Source: Promethearchaeia archaeon
GTDB taxonomy: Archaea; Asgardarchaeota; Lokiarchaeia; Sigyniarchaeales; SOKP01
Length of the DNA: 64,000 bases
Direction: 5' to 3'
NCBI GenBank assembly: GCA_029856045.1
Contig: JAHQWG010000043.1
Location: 55,153-119,152, forward strand
Shown here: positions 1 to 46,366 of the stretch, piece by piece
Position numbering within the stretch: position 1 is the stretch's first letter
Layout of the letters: the number at the start of each line of letters is the position of its first letter
The notes under the pieces: generated by a model
Told to the model about the DNA's origin: nothing
Databases searched by the model: none
The model's input: only the letters and a program-made list of their open reading frames with translations
Translations under genes and position numbers: made by a program

Positions 1-1407
1 ATTTTTAATTCCTGAAATTTTCTTAACCAAACCGAATCCAGGTTTTACTTCAGCTAAATCCTTAACTTCTACTAAATTGCCATTTATTAATTTATTAAAT
101 AAATCATTCCCAACTTTTGTTCTTGTAATAACTGAAGACCAGCCTGCACTAGAACCTATTGAACCTACTGAAATATCTGCAAATTCGGACGTTAAATCAC
201 TACAATAATGGCATACATCTCTTGCTAAGGAAGTTACTTCTTTTAATGGAACTTTGGCTTCTTCTCCATTTTTATCTTTGATAATAAATTTTCCTCCACT
301 AATGTCCATTTTTAAAATGTTCTCTAATTTCTTATTAAAAATTTCAGTGCTTATTTTGATAACATTATCATAGCTGAATGATTCCATGCAGAATAAACCA
401 ATAGTATATTTAATATTATTAAAAAAAGATGTTCCAATTGGATAAATACTTCCTTTTTTGAGTGCTAACATCATACATGGAGTTCCAACGACTGCAATTT
501 TATCAAATTTTTGTGCTTCATTCAAAATTGTTAAACTTGGAGAATTAGCATATTTTGTACCAGCGGTTTTATAAAGATCATCAACATTCTCAATTATAAT
601 AGGTTTTGGCCTCCAAATATCTTCAGAATGGGTTACTGCTATCGCAGCATCAATTTCTTTTTCTTTTAGTAAATAATATAACAATGTTGTTATTATACCA
701 CCATCTTGGCATACTTCTTTAATTTCATCACTTTTTGTACTTGCAGTATATGCATTTATATAATAATTACTTGCGGCACCATCCTTCAAATTAGGATTTA
801 ATTTATTTAAAACTGTAAAAATATGCTCAGATGGAAATGACCTCGGGCAAACAGAAAAACAAAGTCCGCATTTAATGCAAGTCTCAGAATCAATTTTAAG
901 ATCATCTGCAGTTACTGTTATTGAGCCAACTGGGCATATTGATGAACAATAACCACAATTACAACAAAAATTATTCTCAAATACTAAAGACACTGGCTCA
1001 AAATAATTTTCTCGAAAAGAATTATCAAGGGATTTGGCTTGATATCGAATAATTTCAATCTTAATTTCTTTATCTATCAAATTTCCCTCTTTATTTTTTA
1101 CTTTTTTAATTTCTGTCTTTATTTCAATTAATTTTTCAACATAACCTTGTTGGGTTAAATATTCAACTGTTTGTACTAATTTTTTCTTATCATATTCCAC
1201 TTTCTCCACTATTTCTTCAAGAGTAAGCAGAGGAAGCCCTATTAATTTTTTTAATATTAAATTTCTTTCTGTCTCAGCATCGAGAAGTGAATCTAAAATA
1301 AAATTAAAATCTTCCTCACTAAATCTTCCAAATTTTAAAATATCATCTTTTCCTTCATATAATGCACGAATTTGAAAATTACTTATAGCGTTATATGTAG
1401 ATTCCAT
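1..1407 (-). CDS. Coenzyme F420 hydrogenase/dehydrogenase beta subunit (FrhB/FdhB family) with N-terminal extension; runs off the window start
   Basis: Not in the ORF track because there is no stop inside the window. Manual translation from ATG 1407 (in-frame GTG at 1443) gives CCNCGYCSSICP...CIKCGLCFSVCP, then CQDGGIITTLL, AGTKY, VGTPC, IGLFCMESF, CHYCSDLTSEFADISVGSIG. Confidence 0.9.
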   Translation of the reverse strand, partial: MESTYNAISNFQIRALYEGKDDILKFGRFSEEDFNFILDSLLDAETERNLILKKLIGLPLLTLEEIVEKVEYDKKKLVQTVEYLTQQGYVEKLIEIKTEIKKVKNKEGNLIDKEIKIEIIRYQAKSLDNSFRENYFEPVSLVFENNFCCNCGYCSSICPVGSITVTADDLKIDSETCIKCGLCFSVCPRSFPSEHIFTVLNKLNPNLKDGAASNYYINAYTASTKSDEIKEVCQDGGIITTLLYYLLKEKEIDAAIAVTHSEDIWRPKPIIIENVDDLYKTAGTKYANSPSLTILNEAQKFDKIAVVGTPCMMLALKKGSIYPIGTSFFNNIKYTIGLFCMESFSYDNVIKISTEIFNKKLENILKMDISGGKFIIKDKNGEEAKVPLKEVTSLARDVCHYCSDLTSEFADISVGSIGSSAGWSSVITRTKVGNDLFNKLINGNLVEVKDLAEVKPGFGLVKKISGIKN

Positions 1408-1467
1408 TAGATTTTTTAGATCAGTATTTTCTATAAGATTCACCTTCCTAATTAAATTTTTTTTAAG

Positions 1468-1546
1468 CCCCCATATCCCTTGCAGGGATGTCCCAATAAA
1501 ATTTCTTAATTTTAAGCTTTAATTTTAAAGATCATTCAAATGGGGG
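1468..1546 (-). promoter_or_regulatory. Eukaryote-like SECIS element downstream of hdrA-vhuD
   Basis: Minus strand reads CCCCCAT-TTGA-ATGA-TCTTTAAAATT-AAAG-CTTAA AA TTAAG-A-AATTTTATTGG-GA-C-ATCCCTGCAAGGGAT-ATGGGGG. This gives helix I (CCCCCAT/ATGGGGG), an AUGA/GA core, an 11-bp helix II, apical AAA and a mini-stem. Confidence 0.88.
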
Positions 1547-2003
1547 TTTTAGTTTTTAATTTTTTATCTGCATCTTTTATTTCTGCCTTAAAAACTGCTT
1601 GATCTGTTTTTAATGGGTTCAATCCCAATTTTTCTATTTTATTTACCATATCTTCGACCGATTTTACAAATTTTACAGCTTCAGCTCCAGTGCAGTTATA
1701 CATGTTTACTCGGTCTCCTCCCAAACCACGCCTATCTAGAATTCGCCTAACAAATTCGACATGTTTTGCAGCGATAAAGTTTCCAGTTTTAAATTCACAT
1801 TGATTTTCTAGTCAGCCTACAACCATTACTCCATCGGCACCATTATTAATTGCATAGATTAGGTGTTTTATATCAACTCTACCTGTACAGCGCAGACGAA
1901 TAATTTTTACATTGGGACTATATTTCAATCTTGAAACACCAGCTAAATCTGCAGCACTATAACCTCATTTATTACAAGCAAATGTAATGATATTCATTTT
2001 CAT
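1536..2003 (-). CDS. vhuD: Selenoprotein hydrogenase iron-sulfur subunit VhuD/MvhD (155 aa, 2 Sec)
   Basis: ATG 2003 after a GGTGAG RBS. Translation: MKMNIITFACNK-U-GYSAADLAG...RCTGRVD...GADGVMVVG-U-LENQCEFKTGN. TGA codons at 1965-1967 and 1812-1814 sit at conserved MvhD Cys/Sec sites. The ORF track shows only the last 62 aa. Confidence 0.93.
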
Positions 2004-2026
2004 ATATCTCACCTGAATTTTTCGGT

Positions 2027-3970
2027 TTATGCATTTTCCTCCTTTACTAATGCTAAGACTTGATTAAATATTTGCTCATCTGTATAATATCTAATTTGTA
2101 TTGCTTGAGTTGGACAACAAGTTGCACAGATTCCACATCCGTCACAATTGATCTCATCGACCTCAGCAATTTTTCCTTCAGGTACAATAATAGCATTCTT
2201 TGGACAATTTTTTTCGCAGCGACAACAAGAAATACAATTTTCTTCATCAACAATCGCACATATTAATTCAAGCTCCGCTTCTCCCTTGGATGTTAATTCT
2301 GCAACCTTACTTGCGGTTGCTCTCGCTTGAGAAACCGAGTATGATATATTTTTTGGTCCTTGCGCAAAACCACAAATATAAATCCCTAGATATTTTGTTT
2401 CTTGAGGACTTAAGCCAAAATGATGTTCAGTCAGGTATCCATTTGTATCATAATCAATTCCAAGAACATCTGCTATTTGTTTCGTTCCTTTAGATGGTAA
2501 TACTGCAGTTGATAAAACTACTAAGTCTGCATCAATTTTTATTATCTCATCTGTTAATGAAGAATATACTCTTACCTTGAGATTTTTGGTTTCAGAATCC
2601 TCTATTAGTTCTGGAACTTTACCTCGAATAAAGTCAATACCTTTATCACGAGTTCTCATATAGTATTCTTCAAAGTTCTTTTCAGATGCTCTTATATCAA
2701 TGTAGCAGATGGTTATATGGCAATCAGGGATTTCTTCTTTAAGTAATTTAGCATTTTTTAAAGCGATCATGCAACACACACCAGAACAATACGCTCTTTC
2801 TGTATCTCTCGAGCCAACACATTGAATAAATAATATTTCTTTAGGTGTTTTTCCATCTGATGGTCTTTTTACATGGCCCATTGTTGGACCATTTGGTGCT
2901 AATATCCTTTCAAGCTGGATTTCGTTTATAACATTTTGATATTCTCCATATCCATATTCTATAGGATTATATAAGTCCCAACCCGTTGCAACTATTATTG
3001 TACCCACTTCAATTTCGACATATTCAGGTTCTTGACTCAAATCAATTGCATGTGGCTCGCAAGCATCTACACAGGCATATCATTCAACGCAAGATTCTTT
3101 TTCAAGATCATAAACAAAAGGAATAGCTTGCCCAAAACATATATCGATACATTTTCTTGAACCTAAATTTTCTTGCCAATAATTTGGTATGTAAATTGGA
3201 CATACTGGCGTACAATCTCCACAACCATTACACAAATCTTCTATAACATATCTAGGTTTTTTCTTTATCGTAACTTCATAATTTCCAACATATCCTTCAA
3301 CTTTATCAACTTCACTATAACTAATAATTTCAATATTTTCATTTCGATTAGCTTCAAGCATTTTTGGACCAAGAATTCATATAGAACAATCATCAGTTGG
3401 AAATGTTCGATCTAACTGAGCCATTCTGCCCCCAATTGTAGTTTTACTCTCTATTAAATACACCCTTATTCCTTGATTTGCCAGATCTAATGCCGCATTT
3501 AATCCAGCGATTCCTCCACCAACTACCAAAGTAGCTTTTTTTATAGGAATAATTTTTGTCGGTACTATTTCCAATCTTTTAGCCCTTTCATAACCTGCTC
3601 TGCTTAAAATCTTTGCTTTATTGGTTGCTGAAACTTCGTCTTCAGTAATCCAAGAACATTGTTCTCTAATATTTACCATTTGAAAATAAAATTTACTAAG
3701 TCCTGCCCGTTCTAAAGACTCTCTATAAATCGGTTCATGAGTTCTAGGAGTTCAAGCTGCCGCTACAACCCGATTTATCTTTTTTTCTTTGATATCATCC
3801 ATTATTAATTTCTGCCCTTGTTCAGTACATAAAAAACTAAAGATGCGACTTGTTTCAATATTATCAAATTGTTTCATATACTCTGCAACTTCAGAACAAT
3901 TAACTTTCGCAGAAATATTCAAGCCTCATTGACATGCATAATATCCAATGCGTAAAATTTCTTTACTCAA
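2027..3970 (-). CDS. hdrA: Selenoprotein heterodisulfide reductase subunit A (647 aa, 4 Sec)
   Basis: TTG 3970 opens one frame that joins track ORFs 3377-3679, 3080-3361 and 2027-3040. TGA codons at 3926-3928 (CQ-U-G), 3752-3754 (AAA-U-TPRTHE), 3377-3379 (FPTDDCSI-U-ILGPK) and 3080-3082 (CVE-U-YACVDAC). Also contains the GGGIAG FAD motif, IQCVGSRD and ferredoxin motifs. Confidence 0.93.
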
Positions 3971-4760
3971 TTTTTTTTCACATCAACTCGTTTAATAATT
4001 TTTATTTTAAAATTTATACTATTAGATTAAAAAAATTCAAAATGCTCCAAATTAAAAAAATTTTTTATAATAATTTTCAGATTCAATAATTTTATATTTT
4101 GAAATTACCTTATTTAATAATTTTTATCTTAATGATTATATAAATTATTCGATACTGACAGAAATGGAAAATAAAATAATTAATTTTTACGAGAAACCTT
4201 AAGAAATTATTTTGAATTATACAATTTCGGTTATTATCCCCGATTTCCTAAATCTTTATATAAAATCATTTCCGAAATTGATAACTTCATTAATAATAAT
4301 TTCGAAGACTAATAAAAAATCAAAAAAGAATTTTTAAATCCAAAAATATATTTAAAAAAATGTATTATATTCCTAAATAAATTTAACAAAAAGAACAATA
4401 CTTACAAAAGATAGACAATAGAACTATTAAGTAATTATTTCAATTCATGTAATAGAGCAATTTTTAAAAGAGATGTGGTTAAACATTTGGGAGAAATTGA
4501 TGATGAAAAAATTCTTAAGTATCTTTTAAAATATGTAGGAGATTATCATAGTAAAGTCCGGCTTTTAATGACTAAAATGATAAAAAAAATTGAAGCAAGA
4601 ATAGATAACAAACTCAATAATCAATAAAATATCTTTTTTTTCCTCTGATATTTTTCTAAAAAAAATGAATTGTTATTTAATTATAATAATTTTTTTTAAG
4701 GATTAAGGTTTTAAATAAGTATTTCTATTCAAATCTCAGTGTAAATAAAGGTTTTATAGA

Positions 4761-6254
4761 GTGAGTGAAGAAATAAATAAAGTAAAATCTGAATCTAAAT
4801 ATGAACATTCTTTTGAATATATAAGAAAAAAATTAGAAGGAAAAAAAGATTCATTTGGAAAATTAGTAAAGGAAGTTATAAGAACAGGTGTTTGTACTCA
4901 TTGTGGCACTTGTGCAGCGATTTGCAGTGCTCTTGAATGGGATCCAATTTTAGAGGAACCAAAATTAATTGGAGTATGTTCTGGGTGTGGAATTTGTTAT
5001 AATCAATGTCCAAGGACTATTACTAATCCCGAACAACTTGTTGGTCATTTTAAAACAGGTTATGTTACAAAAAGTGGAATTCCTGAAGTTATTGGTGGTC
5101 AGGACGGAGGAACCGTTACGAGCTTATTATGTTATTTATTTGATGAAAATTTAATTGATGGAGCAGTTGTTACTAAAAAAAATCCAAATAAACCATGGGT
5201 TCCGTTACCTCAACTTATTAATACAAAAGAAGAAGCTGTTGAAGCTGCTGGTTCTATTTATAGCCATTCACAAACAGTTGATTCTTTAATTGACGGGATT
5301 AGAAATAACATGGGCTCTATCGCATTTGTAGGAACTCCTTGCAACATAGATGCTGTGTTTAAAATGGAAAGTAGTCCACTTGGAATGTTAAAATATTTTA
5401 TGAGAGCACATGTTTTTAAAATTGGATTATTTTGTATGGATTCATTTTCACATGAAGCATTATTACCATTTTTTGAGAAGGAGGGAATTAAATTAGCGGA
5501 AATAACAAAAATGGATATCAATAAAGGAAAATTTTATCTTTACAGAGGAGATACAGAAGTAAAATCCTATAAAATAAGGGAATTAGATAAATTTAAATCA
5601 TCAAGTTGCAATTTTTGCACAGATTTAACTTCAGAAAATGCTGATATCTCGGTGGGTTCTGTTGGAAGTGGCCCGAAGAAAAACACAGTTTTAGCACGAT
5701 CAGGTATAGGAGTAGAAATTATAGAGGATGCTATAAAAAAGGGATATTTATGTTCTGAACCATTTTCAGTGGAAAATTTAAATTCTGTCTTGTTCTTAGC
5801 AAGATTAAAGAAAGTATCTCAATATACAGTTCTTAAAAGGAAGGTTTTTATAGTTAAAGATATAGATAAAAAAGAACCATTTAAACAATCACCAGAATTG
5901 AAAGAGCAAGCTGAGATCGCAACGCCGTTTGGAACAAGAAAAATTTTAAAGGTTACTCAAAAACTGAATGAAAGTCAAACGGCTACTGCAATTACAATAG
6001 AAAATGTTATTGGATATCTTCTTGAAAATTTACAAATTAGGGTTGCTTTTGTGGAAGAACTATTTGAAAAACGACCGTGGACTACAACAATAAAAGAAAT
6101 TTTTCCTTTTGAATCTATTCAGATTAATTATCCATTAGAAATTAAAGATGGAGAACACGATCTTGGAGAAATAATTATAGATATTTCTGATTCACATAGA
6201 AAACTCTTTTTTAAGAAATATTCTCTTAAACCAAAAGAAAAAAAATCAAAATAA
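4761..6254 (+). CDS. FrhB/FdhB-family F420-binding subunit with C-terminal beta-rich extension
   Basis: Two CxxCxxCxxxC motifs, GQDGGTVT, VGTPC, IGLFCM, CNFCTDLTSENADISVGSVG, plus about 140 extra C-terminal residues. Confidence 0.88.
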   Translation: MSEEINKVKSESKYEHSFEYIRKKLEGKKDSFGKLVKEVIRTGVCTHCGTCAAICSALEWDPILEEPKLIGVCSGCGICYNQCPRTITNPEQLVGHFKTGYVTKSGIPEVIGGQDGGTVTSLLCYLFDENLIDGAVVTKKNPNKPWVPLPQLINTKEEAVEAAGSIYSHSQTVDSLIDGIRNNMGSIAFVGTPCNIDAVFKMESSPLGMLKYFMRAHVFKIGLFCMDSFSHEALLPFFEKEGIKLAEITKMDINKGKFYLYRGDTEVKSYKIRELDKFKSSSCNFCTDLTSENADISVGSVGSGPKKNTVLARSGIGVEIIEDAIKKGYLCSEPFSVENLNSVLFLARLKKVSQYTVLKRKVFIVKDIDKKEPFKQSPELKEQAEIATPFGTRKILKVTQKLNESQTATAITIENVIGYLLENLQIRVAFVEELFEKRPWTTTIKEIFPFESIQINYPLEIKDGEHDLGEIIIDISDSHRKLFFKKYSLKPKEKKSK

Positions 6255-45340: not shown

Positions 45341-46366
45341 TTATTTTTTTGAAACCTCCTCAAATTCAATATTTTTGGAGAGTCTTACTAATCCTGGCTC
45401 TTTTTTATCAATTAACCCTACAACCCAATTATGTATATTATTACTTGATAGAAGGTTTGAGAATTCCTCAACATTGTCTGCATCAACCGAGAGAAGCATC
45501 CCCCCCGCAGTTTCTGAAGCCTCACATGAATCAAGGCGGTAATTGAAATCCTTGGCAAGTTCTTTTGCATATTTTATAATCGGAACTGTTTCAATTAACG
45601 CGGAAAGATTTGTACCCTCAAGCATTTCTCTAGTATGACCTGCAAGTCCAAAACCAGTTACATCGGTCATTGAATGAATAAATGAAAAATCATCATAGGA
45701 ATGTATTGTTTTTACAACATTTTGATTTGATGTAATCATTAATTCAATAGCATAATCGATTGAACTTTTTAACTCATTAGCCGAATAAAGTTCTAAGATT
45801 TCCGGAGTATTTTTTAATATTCTATAGGCAGCCATTACCGGTTGAAGTCCCGTAGGTTTAGTGATTATTAATTTATCACCTTCTCTTGGACCCTGTTTTC
45901 TGATGAGTTTATCTTTTTCCACAAATCCGGACGCTTCTCCACCAATAAGTGGCCATTCGCAGTAAATTGTATGCCCTCCTAACACTTTTGAGTTAATTTT
46001 TTTCATAAAATTGTTTATTCCATTCATAATTCCTTCAGCAACCTCCATGGGCATCATTGTATCCATTGCTAGGAAAACAAGCATTCCTTGTATCTCAGGT
46101 ACATTCATGGCAAAAATATCGTTTGTTACATTACATGCAGCGATTTCTCCCATAATCTCTGGCTCATCTGCAATAGGAGTAAATATATCTATATTTTGAA
46201 GCAATAATAAATTAGTATTAGGAACAGGAGTAATTGAACAATCTTCAGTAAGACCAGCTAAACCAACATTCTCTAATAACTCCTTCAATTTTTTCGGACC
46301 TAATTTGCATGATCAACCAAAAATTTTAACCTGTTGAGTTAATCGATACTCTTCTCTACTTTTCAA
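45341..46366 (-). CDS. selD: Selenophosphate synthetase, itself a selenoprotein (341 aa, Sec18)
   Basis: TTG 46366 after a GGAGG RBS. YRLTQQVKIFG-U-SCKLGP with TGA at 46313-46315 (UxxK motif). Also DIFTP, NDIFAM, GGHT, TDVTGFGLAGH, ETAGGML. Confidence 0.95.

Follow-up and report, generated by a model that had tools for sequence, protein, structure and literature searches.

We describe a selenocysteine (Sec)-type hdrA-vhuD tandem in a Lokiarchaeia (Promethearchaeota) genome, in which six in-frame UGA codons are almost certainly read as Sec and a single SECIS element located after vhuD quite probably serves both cistrons, this being the reading best supported by the comparison of sequences. The sharing of one SECIS by hdrA and vhuD has already been proposed. 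Mariotti et al. 2016 (Mol Biol Evol, PMC4989117) made the point for Lokiarchaeota HdrA-VhuD tandems, which would share one lokiSECIS acting on "up to six UGA codons... ~2 kb", and Huang et al. 2024 (ISME J, PMC11227280) repeated the proposal for 227 Asgard genomes, stating that hdrA and frhD(vhuD) share one structure. The locus is a good but ordinary example of this arrangement, and its value is that of a clean test case at the upper end of the range, with six UGAs starting at codon 15, only 23 nt separating the two genes and 24 nt to the next gene, to which related loci add comparative arguments: free switching between Sec and Cys, avoidance of UGA as the hdrA stop codon and covariation in a three-helix junction. 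Table 1 gives the features of the locus within the whole 64-kb stretch of DNA that was analysed (the window).

Table 1. Coordinates of the hdrA-vhuD tandem, the downstream RNA element and the flanking features.
Feature	Position	Strand	Description
hdrA (heterodisulfide reductase subunit A)	3970..2027	minus	647 codons; TTG start; TAA stop at 2029-2027
hdrA UGA codon 15 (U15)	3928-3926	minus	first Sec codon; 42 nt past the start; 2393 nt ahead of the SECIS AUGA
hdrA UGA codon 73 (U73)	3754-3752	minus	U in 45/45 related hdrA
hdrA UGA codon 198 (U198)	3379-3377	minus	canonical HdrA Sec position; U in 45/45 related hdrA
hdrA UGA codon 297 (U297)	3082-3080	minus	second position of ferredoxin motif C294-x2-U297-x2-C300-x3-C304-P
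hdrA-vhuD spacer	2026-2004	minus	23 nt; Shine-Dalgarno-like AGGTGA at 2014-2009
vhuD/mvhD (FlpD family)	2003..1536	minus	155 codons; PF02662, 1e-43
vhuD Sec codons	U13 = 1967-1965, U64 = 1814-1812	minus	both Cys in Cys-type paralogues
vhuD stop	1538-1536	minus	TGA, third in frame; directly abuts the SECIS AUGA
lokiSECIS-type element	1546-1468	minus	79 nt; three-helix junction
Element helix I	1546-1540 with 1474-1468	minus	lower stem; 5' loop UUGA
Element AUGA core	1535-1532	minus	3' GA at 1492-1491
Element helix II	1531-1521 with 1503-1493	minus	11 positions including a UU/UU mismatch (2 mismatches)
Element apical loop	1520-1504	minus	17 nt, starts AAA; AAAGCUUAAAAUUAAGA
Element extra hairpin	1489-1475	minus	AUCCC-UGCAA-GGGAU (conserved UGCA hairpin), between the 3' GA and the lower stem
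frhB-like gene	1..1443	minus	GTG start at 1443; 2x[4Fe-4S] + FrhB_N + FrhB_C; 493 codons in the genome
Upstream region of hdrA (AT-rich leader, divergent intergenic region)	3971..4760	minus	without a SECIS-like element

The initial annotation had assigned the four in-frame TGAs of hdrA and the two of vhuD to conserved Cys/Sec positions, and alignment bears this out: the six codons correspond to Cys in the genome's own Cys-type paralogues and in solved structures of HdrA, and 45 related loci support the same assignment. The HdrA product aligns with PDB chain 9sfi_A over residues 7-639 (672 bits), with U198 paired to the X (Sec) of that chain. Three near-identical related loci first retrieved with one protein held no informative variation, and the wider comparison set was obtained from genome searches. 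In this set position 15, a Cys in the solved structures, is U in all 45 hdrA sequences. Position 297 is U in 4 of 45, all from the genus itself, and Cys in the other 41, so Sec297 is confined to the genus. Close relatives switch between Sec and Cys at four hdrA positions, namely 48 (22 U, 23 C), 297 (4 U), 300 (2 U) and 612 (1 U). The six TGAs of the tandem are retained in four genomes of the genus, within which the pN/pS ratio of hdrA is 0.11-0.33; both hdrA and vhuD are intact and under purifying selection.

The only hairpin of the AUGA/AAA/GA kind had been placed after vhuD, about 2.4 kb from the first UGA and ahead of frhB. Its location and distance stand, and the frhB-like open frame, which is the next co-directional gene, starts 24 nt past helix I. 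The assigned type stands in part: the element is SECIS-like and carries the AUGA/AAA/GA signature, but it is enlarged, sits in a three-helix junction and is not a canonical 9-bp/11-nt lokiSECIS. As in the strict lokiSECIS definition, AUGA lies immediately 5' and GA immediately 3' of the stem; the strict form itself (9-bp stem, 11-nt loop starting with As and ending in G) is found in orthologues of other genera and not in this element. All three helices have covariation support in 46 related elements, and the element diverges by 1-2.5% within the genus, against 5-13% at synonymous sites.

For homology searches, a covariance model was built from 42 canonical related elements, leaving out the element under study. 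Applied with filters off to the whole 64-kb window, the model returned a sole significant match at 1460-1553 on the minus strand (38.4 bits, E 1.3e-7), with the next best match (E 0.9) elsewhere in the window. In 46 related loci it yielded exactly one significant match per locus, always 3' of vhuD, and in the genome itself it matched four Sec-type vhuD genes and one vhuU but none of the seven Cys-type hdrA-mvhD pairs. Folding energies are uninformative on their own, since the region 1444-1570 folded as a single sequence gives z = -0.5, with shuffled sequences folding equally well, and a minimum free energy (MFE) structure that does not contain the SECIS arm. The SECIS-like fold (-16.4 kcal/mol) lies 2.7 kcal/mol above the MFE fold (-19.1 kcal/mol), which uses a second UAAAAUU copy; the assignment of the element therefore rests on homology to the canonical orthologous elements.

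A first alternative is that the element serves only vhuD and that the hdrA UGAs depend on another signal within that gene or its leader, be it local hairpins as in bacteria or a different SECIS class. A loose motif scan following the criteria of Huang et al. 2024 detected the element itself (at 1534, stem 10-11, loop 17-19) among 23 matches at 15 UGA positions, and revealed 14 further UGA-anchored stem-loops on the sense strand, such as AUGA...AA at 2769; a loose match also follows UGA-15 in 35 of 45 relatives. Such matches arise, however, at the rate expected for AT-rich sequence, and the recurring ones have the conserved UGA codons as their anchors. Being neither conserved nor structured in orthologues, these stem-loops were rejected as recoding signals. 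RNAalifold applied in 90-nt windows to a codon alignment of 41 hdrA orthologues, a scan of limited power, found no conserved structure (minimum -1.4, versus -5.9 for the SECIS alignment). The covariance model has no match in hdrA, though it recognises the VhuD/VhuU type specifically and a signal of unrelated kind could escape it. At a permissive threshold (E <= 10), Rfam reported no SECIS family in 1-6000; its matches there to CRISPR-DR62, SAM-II and others are at chance level and were discarded. The Rfam, unfiltered covariance model and alifold searches thus show no second SECIS in or upstream of hdrA, in agreement with the initial annotation, which had seen none in the hdrA leader. The relatives add to this argument, because Sec has been gained or lost at positions 48, 297, 300 and 612 without any accompanying local element while the single SECIS stays unchanged, a pattern expected if the position of the UGA is free. 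A separate hdrA signal is accordingly improbable. A Sec-type hdrA followed by a Cys-type vhuD with a SECIS would have proved action across cistrons; no such combination occurs among ten more distant loci.

Still less probable is that hdrA and vhuD are transcribed or processed apart, with the SECIS acting in trans or not at all and Sec entering HdrA by SECIS-independent read-through with abundant Sec-tRNA. In about half of the orthologues helix I is directly followed by four or five Ts (T4-5), a sign that transcript ends can occur near the element. Against separate transcripts, the 23-nt gap between the genes, measured as the initial annotation had given it, contains a Shine-Dalgarno-like sequence and offers no promoter-sized space, and spacers of similar size, with the same gene order, are found in the 45 related loci. 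The order hdrA-vhuD-element-frhB-like gene is kept in 40 of 40 orthologous loci. The stop codon of hdrA is TGA in none of 46 relatives, even though 12.5% of the long open frames across the genome end in TGA, and this avoidance can be understood only if the mRNA has its UGAs recoded. For vhuD, TGA is the first stop in 32 of 47 loci. The ordinary use of TGA as a stop elsewhere in the genome also argues against general read-through.

That the TGAs are sequencing or assembly errors, pseudogene marks or the product of genome-wide UGA reassignment, an idea for which the metagenome-assembled origin and 29% G+C of the genome might speak, is effectively refuted by the recurrence of the same TGAs in the four genus genomes and in 40 orthologues of other genera, by the purifying selection on hdrA, by the use of TGA to end 175 of 1399 long open frames and by the presence of Sec machinery. 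The genome carries tRNA-Sec, SepSecS (483 bits), SelB/EFSec (268 bits) and a Sec-type SelD with one TGA. The initial annotation had proposed to look for the first three of these and for PSTK; the best match to PSTK is a PSTK-like kinase that, at 148 bits, falls below the curated cut-off of 290 bits. The single TGA of the hdrB/C-like gene downstream of the SECIS was also considered as a Sec codon and rejected, as it is a stop, beyond which the read-through frame would run on for 15 codons.

For the shared element, we propose that hdrA, vhuD and the SECIS lie on one transcript, which probably runs on into the frhB-like gene. Within the three-helix junction, the element would fold as a kink-turn arm with the AUGA...GA core and the A-rich apical loop, and would recruit the Sec-specific elongation factor and Sec-tRNA to ribosomes anywhere on that mRNA, either via a binding protein or via a ribosomal protein of the L7Ae/L30 type. 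Upstream in-frame UGAs far enough away would then be read as Sec in whichever cistron they stand, the vhuD stop UGA, at 0 nt from AUGA, would be too near for recoding and would terminate translation, and termination of hdrA would require UAA or UAG. With the first UGA at codon 15 and the element 2.4 kb downstream, such a mechanism would need either translation that is not coupled to transcription or ribosomes that pause for long at UGA-15.

The tandem resembles those of Mariotti et al. 2016 (PMC4989117) in gene order, in its very short spacer, in a multi-Sec HdrA that includes a Sec near 198 and a two-Sec VhuD, in a single element with AUGA, A-rich loop and GA found only after vhuD, in the closing of hdrA by UAA or UAG and of vhuD by a UGA that abuts the core, and in the extent of the presumed recoding, with up to six UGAs over about 2 kb. 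It differs in that helix II spans 11 positions with a UU/UU mismatch and carries a 17-nt loop, instead of a 9-bp stem with an 11-nt loop, in that the loop ends in GA rather than the 'ultraconserved' AG, and in the presence of Sec297 in a ferredoxin Cys motif without a spare Cys beside it. In the accessible portion of that paper (PMC4989117) we found no description of a three-helix junction with an extra UGCA hairpin. In the eSECIS-like model of Huang et al. 2024 (PMC11227280), a GA_[G/A]A core is combined with an upper stem that is 7-15 bp long and has no more than 2 mismatches, topped in type I by a loop of 8-20 nt and in type II by a bulge and a ministem. The element fits this general model, or alternatively type II, where AAAG would form the bulge, CUU/AAG the 3-bp ministem and 6 nt the loop. 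The model covers core, upper stem and loop only, and the paper reports none of the nucleotides of the internal loop or the lower stem as highly conserved, whereas in the present element a covarying hairpin separates the 3' GA from the lower stem.

Eukaryotic SECIS elements (Rfam SECIS_1 and related; the SBP2-bound kink-turn) share with this element the AUGA...GA quartet motif, an apical loop or bulge rich in A and, by inference, long-distance 3' action on several UGAs, as in SelenoP. The element differs from them in having no Rfam match, a shorter helix II and an extra hairpin in the 3' internal loop, and in lying between cistrons of a prokaryotic operon. The SECIS of Methanococcales VhuD, studied with a Bla reporter in M. 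maripaludis (PMC9622424), is likewise a 3' element behind vhuD with AUGA and GAC sides and hdrA just upstream. Experiments in that system showed a 3'-UTR SECIS to work at 520-679 nt and revealed no strict limit on distance (PMC9622424). The Methanococcus elements are nonetheless of the GAA_A-bulge archaeal type, and the distances tested, 88-679 nt, lay inside a single cistron (PMC9622424), whereas the present element would have to act over 2.4 kb and from one cistron to another.

More tentatively, and with somewhat less than an even chance of being right as a whole, the evidence may be read jointly: the conserved element would be a three-helix junction and not a simple kink-turn hairpin, enlarged in this genus, placed 24 nt before the following gene of a long operon and acting mRNA-wide, Sec297 would have arisen at a ferredoxin-ligand position, and Sec15, Sec73 and Sec198 would converge on the N-terminal [4Fe-4S] cluster. 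New UGAs could then arise at any Cys codon of hdrA because the element acts mRNA-wide, and the Fe-S clusters would be ligated largely by selenolates.

Recoding by one 3' RNA of UGAs lying 0.3-2.4 kb away in two cistrons would bear on how a SECIS communicates with the ribosome, here in the archaea that are the nearest relatives of eukaryotes and that have no known SBP2, a protein reported as undetectable in Lokiarchaeota (PMC4989117). In practical terms, standard annotation will split both hdrA and vhuD, as is to be expected in such genomes.

The two products carry HdrA-type FAD/ferredoxin domains and a FlpD/MvhD domain (1e-43) in Pfam, and HdrA aligns over its full length with the solved chain 9sfi_A (672 bits). 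In alignments to solved HdrA chains, U198 is paired with residue X, a known Sec, of 9sfi_A, and U15, U73 and U297 are paired with Cys, while the Cys-type paralogues of the same genome have Cys at all six Sec positions. These alignments confirm that the four in-frame TGAs of hdrA and the two of vhuD lie at Cys/Sec positions, as the initial annotation had proposed; the 23-nt gap between the genes is likewise as described there. All six TGAs are retained in four genomes of the genus, within which the pN/pS of hdrA is 0.11-0.33.

Features of the hdrA-vhuD locus, its RNA element and associated genes
Feature	Position	Strand	Details
hdrA	TTG 3970 to TAA 2029-2027	minus	647 codons
hdrA in-frame TGAs U15, U73, U198, U297	3928-3926, 3754-3752, 3379-3377, 3082-3080	minus	
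hdrA-vhuD spacer	AGGTGA at 2014-2009	minus	23 nt
vhuD	ATG 2003 to TGA 1538-1536	minus	stop is the third in-frame TGA
vhuD in-frame TGAs U13, U64	1967-1965, 1814-1812	minus	
SECIS-like element	1546-1468	minus	79 nt, directly 3' of vhuD
Element helix I			CCCCCAU paired with AUGGGGG
Element 5' loop			UUGA, includes the vhuD stop
Element AUGA	1535-1532	minus	
Element helix II	1531-1521 with 1503-1493		11 positions, UU/UU mismatch
Element apical loop			17 nt, AAA at its start
Element 3' GA	1492-1491	minus	
Element extra hairpin	1489-1475	minus	AUCCC-UGCAA-GGGAU; helix I 3' strand directly after
AT-rich region upstream of hdrA	3971-4760		790-nt spacer, borders the divergent gene
Third frhB-like gene	4761-6254	plus	497 aa, divergent from hdrA
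selD (selenophosphate synthetase)	45542-46345	minus	one in-frame TGA; inside the same 64-kb window

Single-sequence folding does not pick out the SECIS-like fold (z-score of -0.5 for the element region; -16.4 kcal/mol for the SECIS-like junction versus -19.1 for an alternative fold using a second UAAAAUU copy), and the assignment of the element therefore rests on its relatives. The enlarged part of the SECIS (1504-1531, minus strand) holds two near-identical units of 12-14 nt, CUUUAAAAUUAAAG and CUUAAAAUUAAG, so that either copy can pair with AAUUUUA; the minimum free energy fold uses the second. A U-to-G change at 1521 within the genus gives a slightly better match to the SECIS-like fold.

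The genome (Promethearchaeota/Lokiarchaeia; 3.34 Mb, 29% G+C, 55 contigs) contains eleven hdrA-mvhD-like pairs, four of them of Sec type, namely the present pair and those on contigs C15, C46 and C32. The comparison set for this locus comprised three loci of the same genus, 40 orthologues in other genera of the family and ten loci from lineages further away. In the other genera, vhuD is followed by a canonical lokiSECIS (AUGA, 9-bp stem, 11-nt loop AAAAA..AG, GA), flanked, as here, by helix I and the small UGCA-loop hairpin. Double-sided changes occur in 16 of the 18 pairs of a MAFFT alignment, supporting all three helices, and none of 500 shuffles scored as high; a model-fitted alignment, which leans towards the structure, gives 17 of 18. 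The enlarged helix II and loop are local to this locus and common to the four genomes of the genus, which differ at 1-2 of the 79 nt, synonymous divergence in the adjoining genes being 5-13%.

The extra UGCA-loop hairpin, placed after the 3' GA and ahead of the lower stem's 3' strand, is present in all hdrA-vhuD lokiSECIS elements and in the vhuU element of the same genome (locus L065, 1501-1583), and covariation supports it (A1/A3 alignments). Elements with this hairpin are three-helix junctions; no description of it was found in the main texts of PMC4989117 and PMC11227280. Behind vhuD of a more distant relative (L054, genome G010), helix I, helix II, the A-rich loop and the extra hairpin are kept, the AUGA/GA core is replaced by AAAAU...AAAU, and three TGAs are still found in hdrA and two in vhuD.

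The initial annotation had placed the only SECIS behind vhuD, with none in the hdrA leader, and the searches concur. A covariance model trained on 42 canonical elements, the own genus being absent, recovers the present element (38.4 bits, E 1.3e-7) with its helices aligned as assigned; run without filters, it yields no other notable match in the 64-kb window, where the second-best has an E of 0.9 and lies far away. Across the whole genome it detects five elements, one after each of the four Sec-type vhuD genes and one after vhuU, and in 46 related loci exactly one element per locus. Rfam found no SECIS family, and 41 codon-aligned hdrA orthologues, scanned with RNAalifold in sliding windows, revealed no conserved structure (minimum -1.4, versus -5.9 for the SECIS alignment). 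A loose scan with published Asgard criteria yields matches at chance level in AT-rich sequence; its recurrent matches were rejected as a second signal, being anchored merely on conserved UGA codons. In one orthologous hdrA (L027:2530-2590, minus strand; genome G074), the gene is broken after 'MVNIR' by an insert, about 36 nt long, that includes an in-frame TAG; it resembles a SECIS 5' half (AUAGAAUGACUCUUGUA; weak covariance-model match, E 0.007) and may be either an artefact of assembly or a stray, partial SECIS copy.

The most telling result comes from the Sec positions themselves. Among 45 HdrA sequences, positions 15, 73 and 198 are always Sec, and Sec and Cys are divided 22 to 23 at position 48, 4 (own genus only) to 41 at position 297, 2 to 43 at position 300 and 1 to 44 at position 612. 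Close relatives thus exchange Sec and Cys freely in hdrA while the single downstream element stays constant, the pattern that a position-independent, mRNA-wide signal would predict. TGA is never the hdrA stop (0/46), although 12.5% of the genome's long open frames end in it. For vhuD, the first stop is a TGA in 32 of 47 cases, usually overlapping or abutting AUGA; at the present locus it lies directly before AUGA and is not part of it, a local trait. The single element, the Sec/Cys swaps, the hdrA stops and the Sec machinery together support the proposal that one element behind vhuD serves both cistrons, on a presumed common transcript.

As to that machinery, which the initial annotation had suggested looking for, tRNA-Sec and SepSecS are neighbours on contig 1, SelB/EFSec lying about 3 kb from them, and selD contains Sec. 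The best PSTK candidate falls under the curated cut-off, PSTK nonetheless being its top family. The VhuD-type model did not detect the selD SECIS, a negative that the literature leads one to expect.

The sharing of a SECIS by two cistrons has already been proposed. In the Lokiarchaeota tandem of Mariotti et al. (2016; PMC4989117), which has precisely the present arrangement, HdrA and VhuD invariably form a tandem pair separated by a very short spacer, only VhuD is followed by a lokiSECIS, both genes are described as lying on 'most likely... the same polycistronic mRNA', the hdrA stop is always UAA or UAG, and a minimum-distance rule is put forward for UGA stops close to the element. Huang et al. 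(2024; PMC11227280) extended this to 227 Asgard genomes and defined a general model, which the present element fits. In Methanococcus, a 3' SECIS is functional at 520-679 nt, with no strict distance limit (Peiter et al. 2022; PMC9622424). Beyond the observed anatomy, conservation, element uniqueness and Sec machinery, we propose that hdrA, vhuD and the element would be co-transcribed, that the kink-turn arm would recruit SelB with Sec-tRNA and act across the cistron boundary, and that the vhuD stop adjoining the element would escape recoding. Since a ribosome would arrive at UGA-15 long before a coupled RNA polymerase has transcribed the element, 2.4 kb further on, hdrA translation would have to wait or be uncoupled.

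The AT-rich upstream region and the divergent neighbour indicate that its unit opens with hdrA. Downstream of the element, an frhB-like gene (1-1443, minus strand) begins 24 nt past helix I, a very short spacer local to this locus, and seven close co-directional genes follow the element, including two frhB-like genes, an hdrB/C-like gene, a 1041-residue fused double HdrA of Cys type and a Cys-type mvhD (locus L067, G000:C44:46000-56700). Given this tight packing, the SECIS lies close to the start of a probable operon of seven to eight genes, which also holds a second, Sec-free hdrA-mvhD pair. The order hdrA-vhuD-element-frhB-like is retained in 40 of 40 orthologues. In these, however, the spacer that follows the element exceeds the present one by 30-60 nt, and a T4-5 run, absent in the own genus, stands directly after helix I in about half; the position inside the operon given in the initial annotation is thus plausible for the present element. 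Another SECIS between co-directional genes occurs at L065 (G000:C35:55823-58905), where vhuA precedes a short selenopeptide gene, vhuU, which terminates at the UGA contained in the AUGA core (an AUGA...AA variant), and an HdrC-like ORF begins about 30 nt after the element.

Sec297, also confined to the own genus, occupies the second Cys position of a ferredoxin motif (C294-x2-U-x2-C300-x3-C304-P) with no spare Cys alongside. Sec at this position, or at 300 (two orthologues) or 612 (one), suggests selenolate-ligated [4Fe-4S] clusters. According to the summary of the M. wolfeii structure in PMC9012536, the N-terminal [4Fe-4S] cluster is bound by Cys197 of one HdrA and N-terminal-domain Cys residues of the other; Sec198, Sec15 and Sec73 correspond to those Cys and, by homology, may all surround one cluster, together with Sec48 in half the orthologues. 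In one state resolved by a 2026 cryo-EM study, a Cys-Sec197 bridge is seen instead (PMC13518236).
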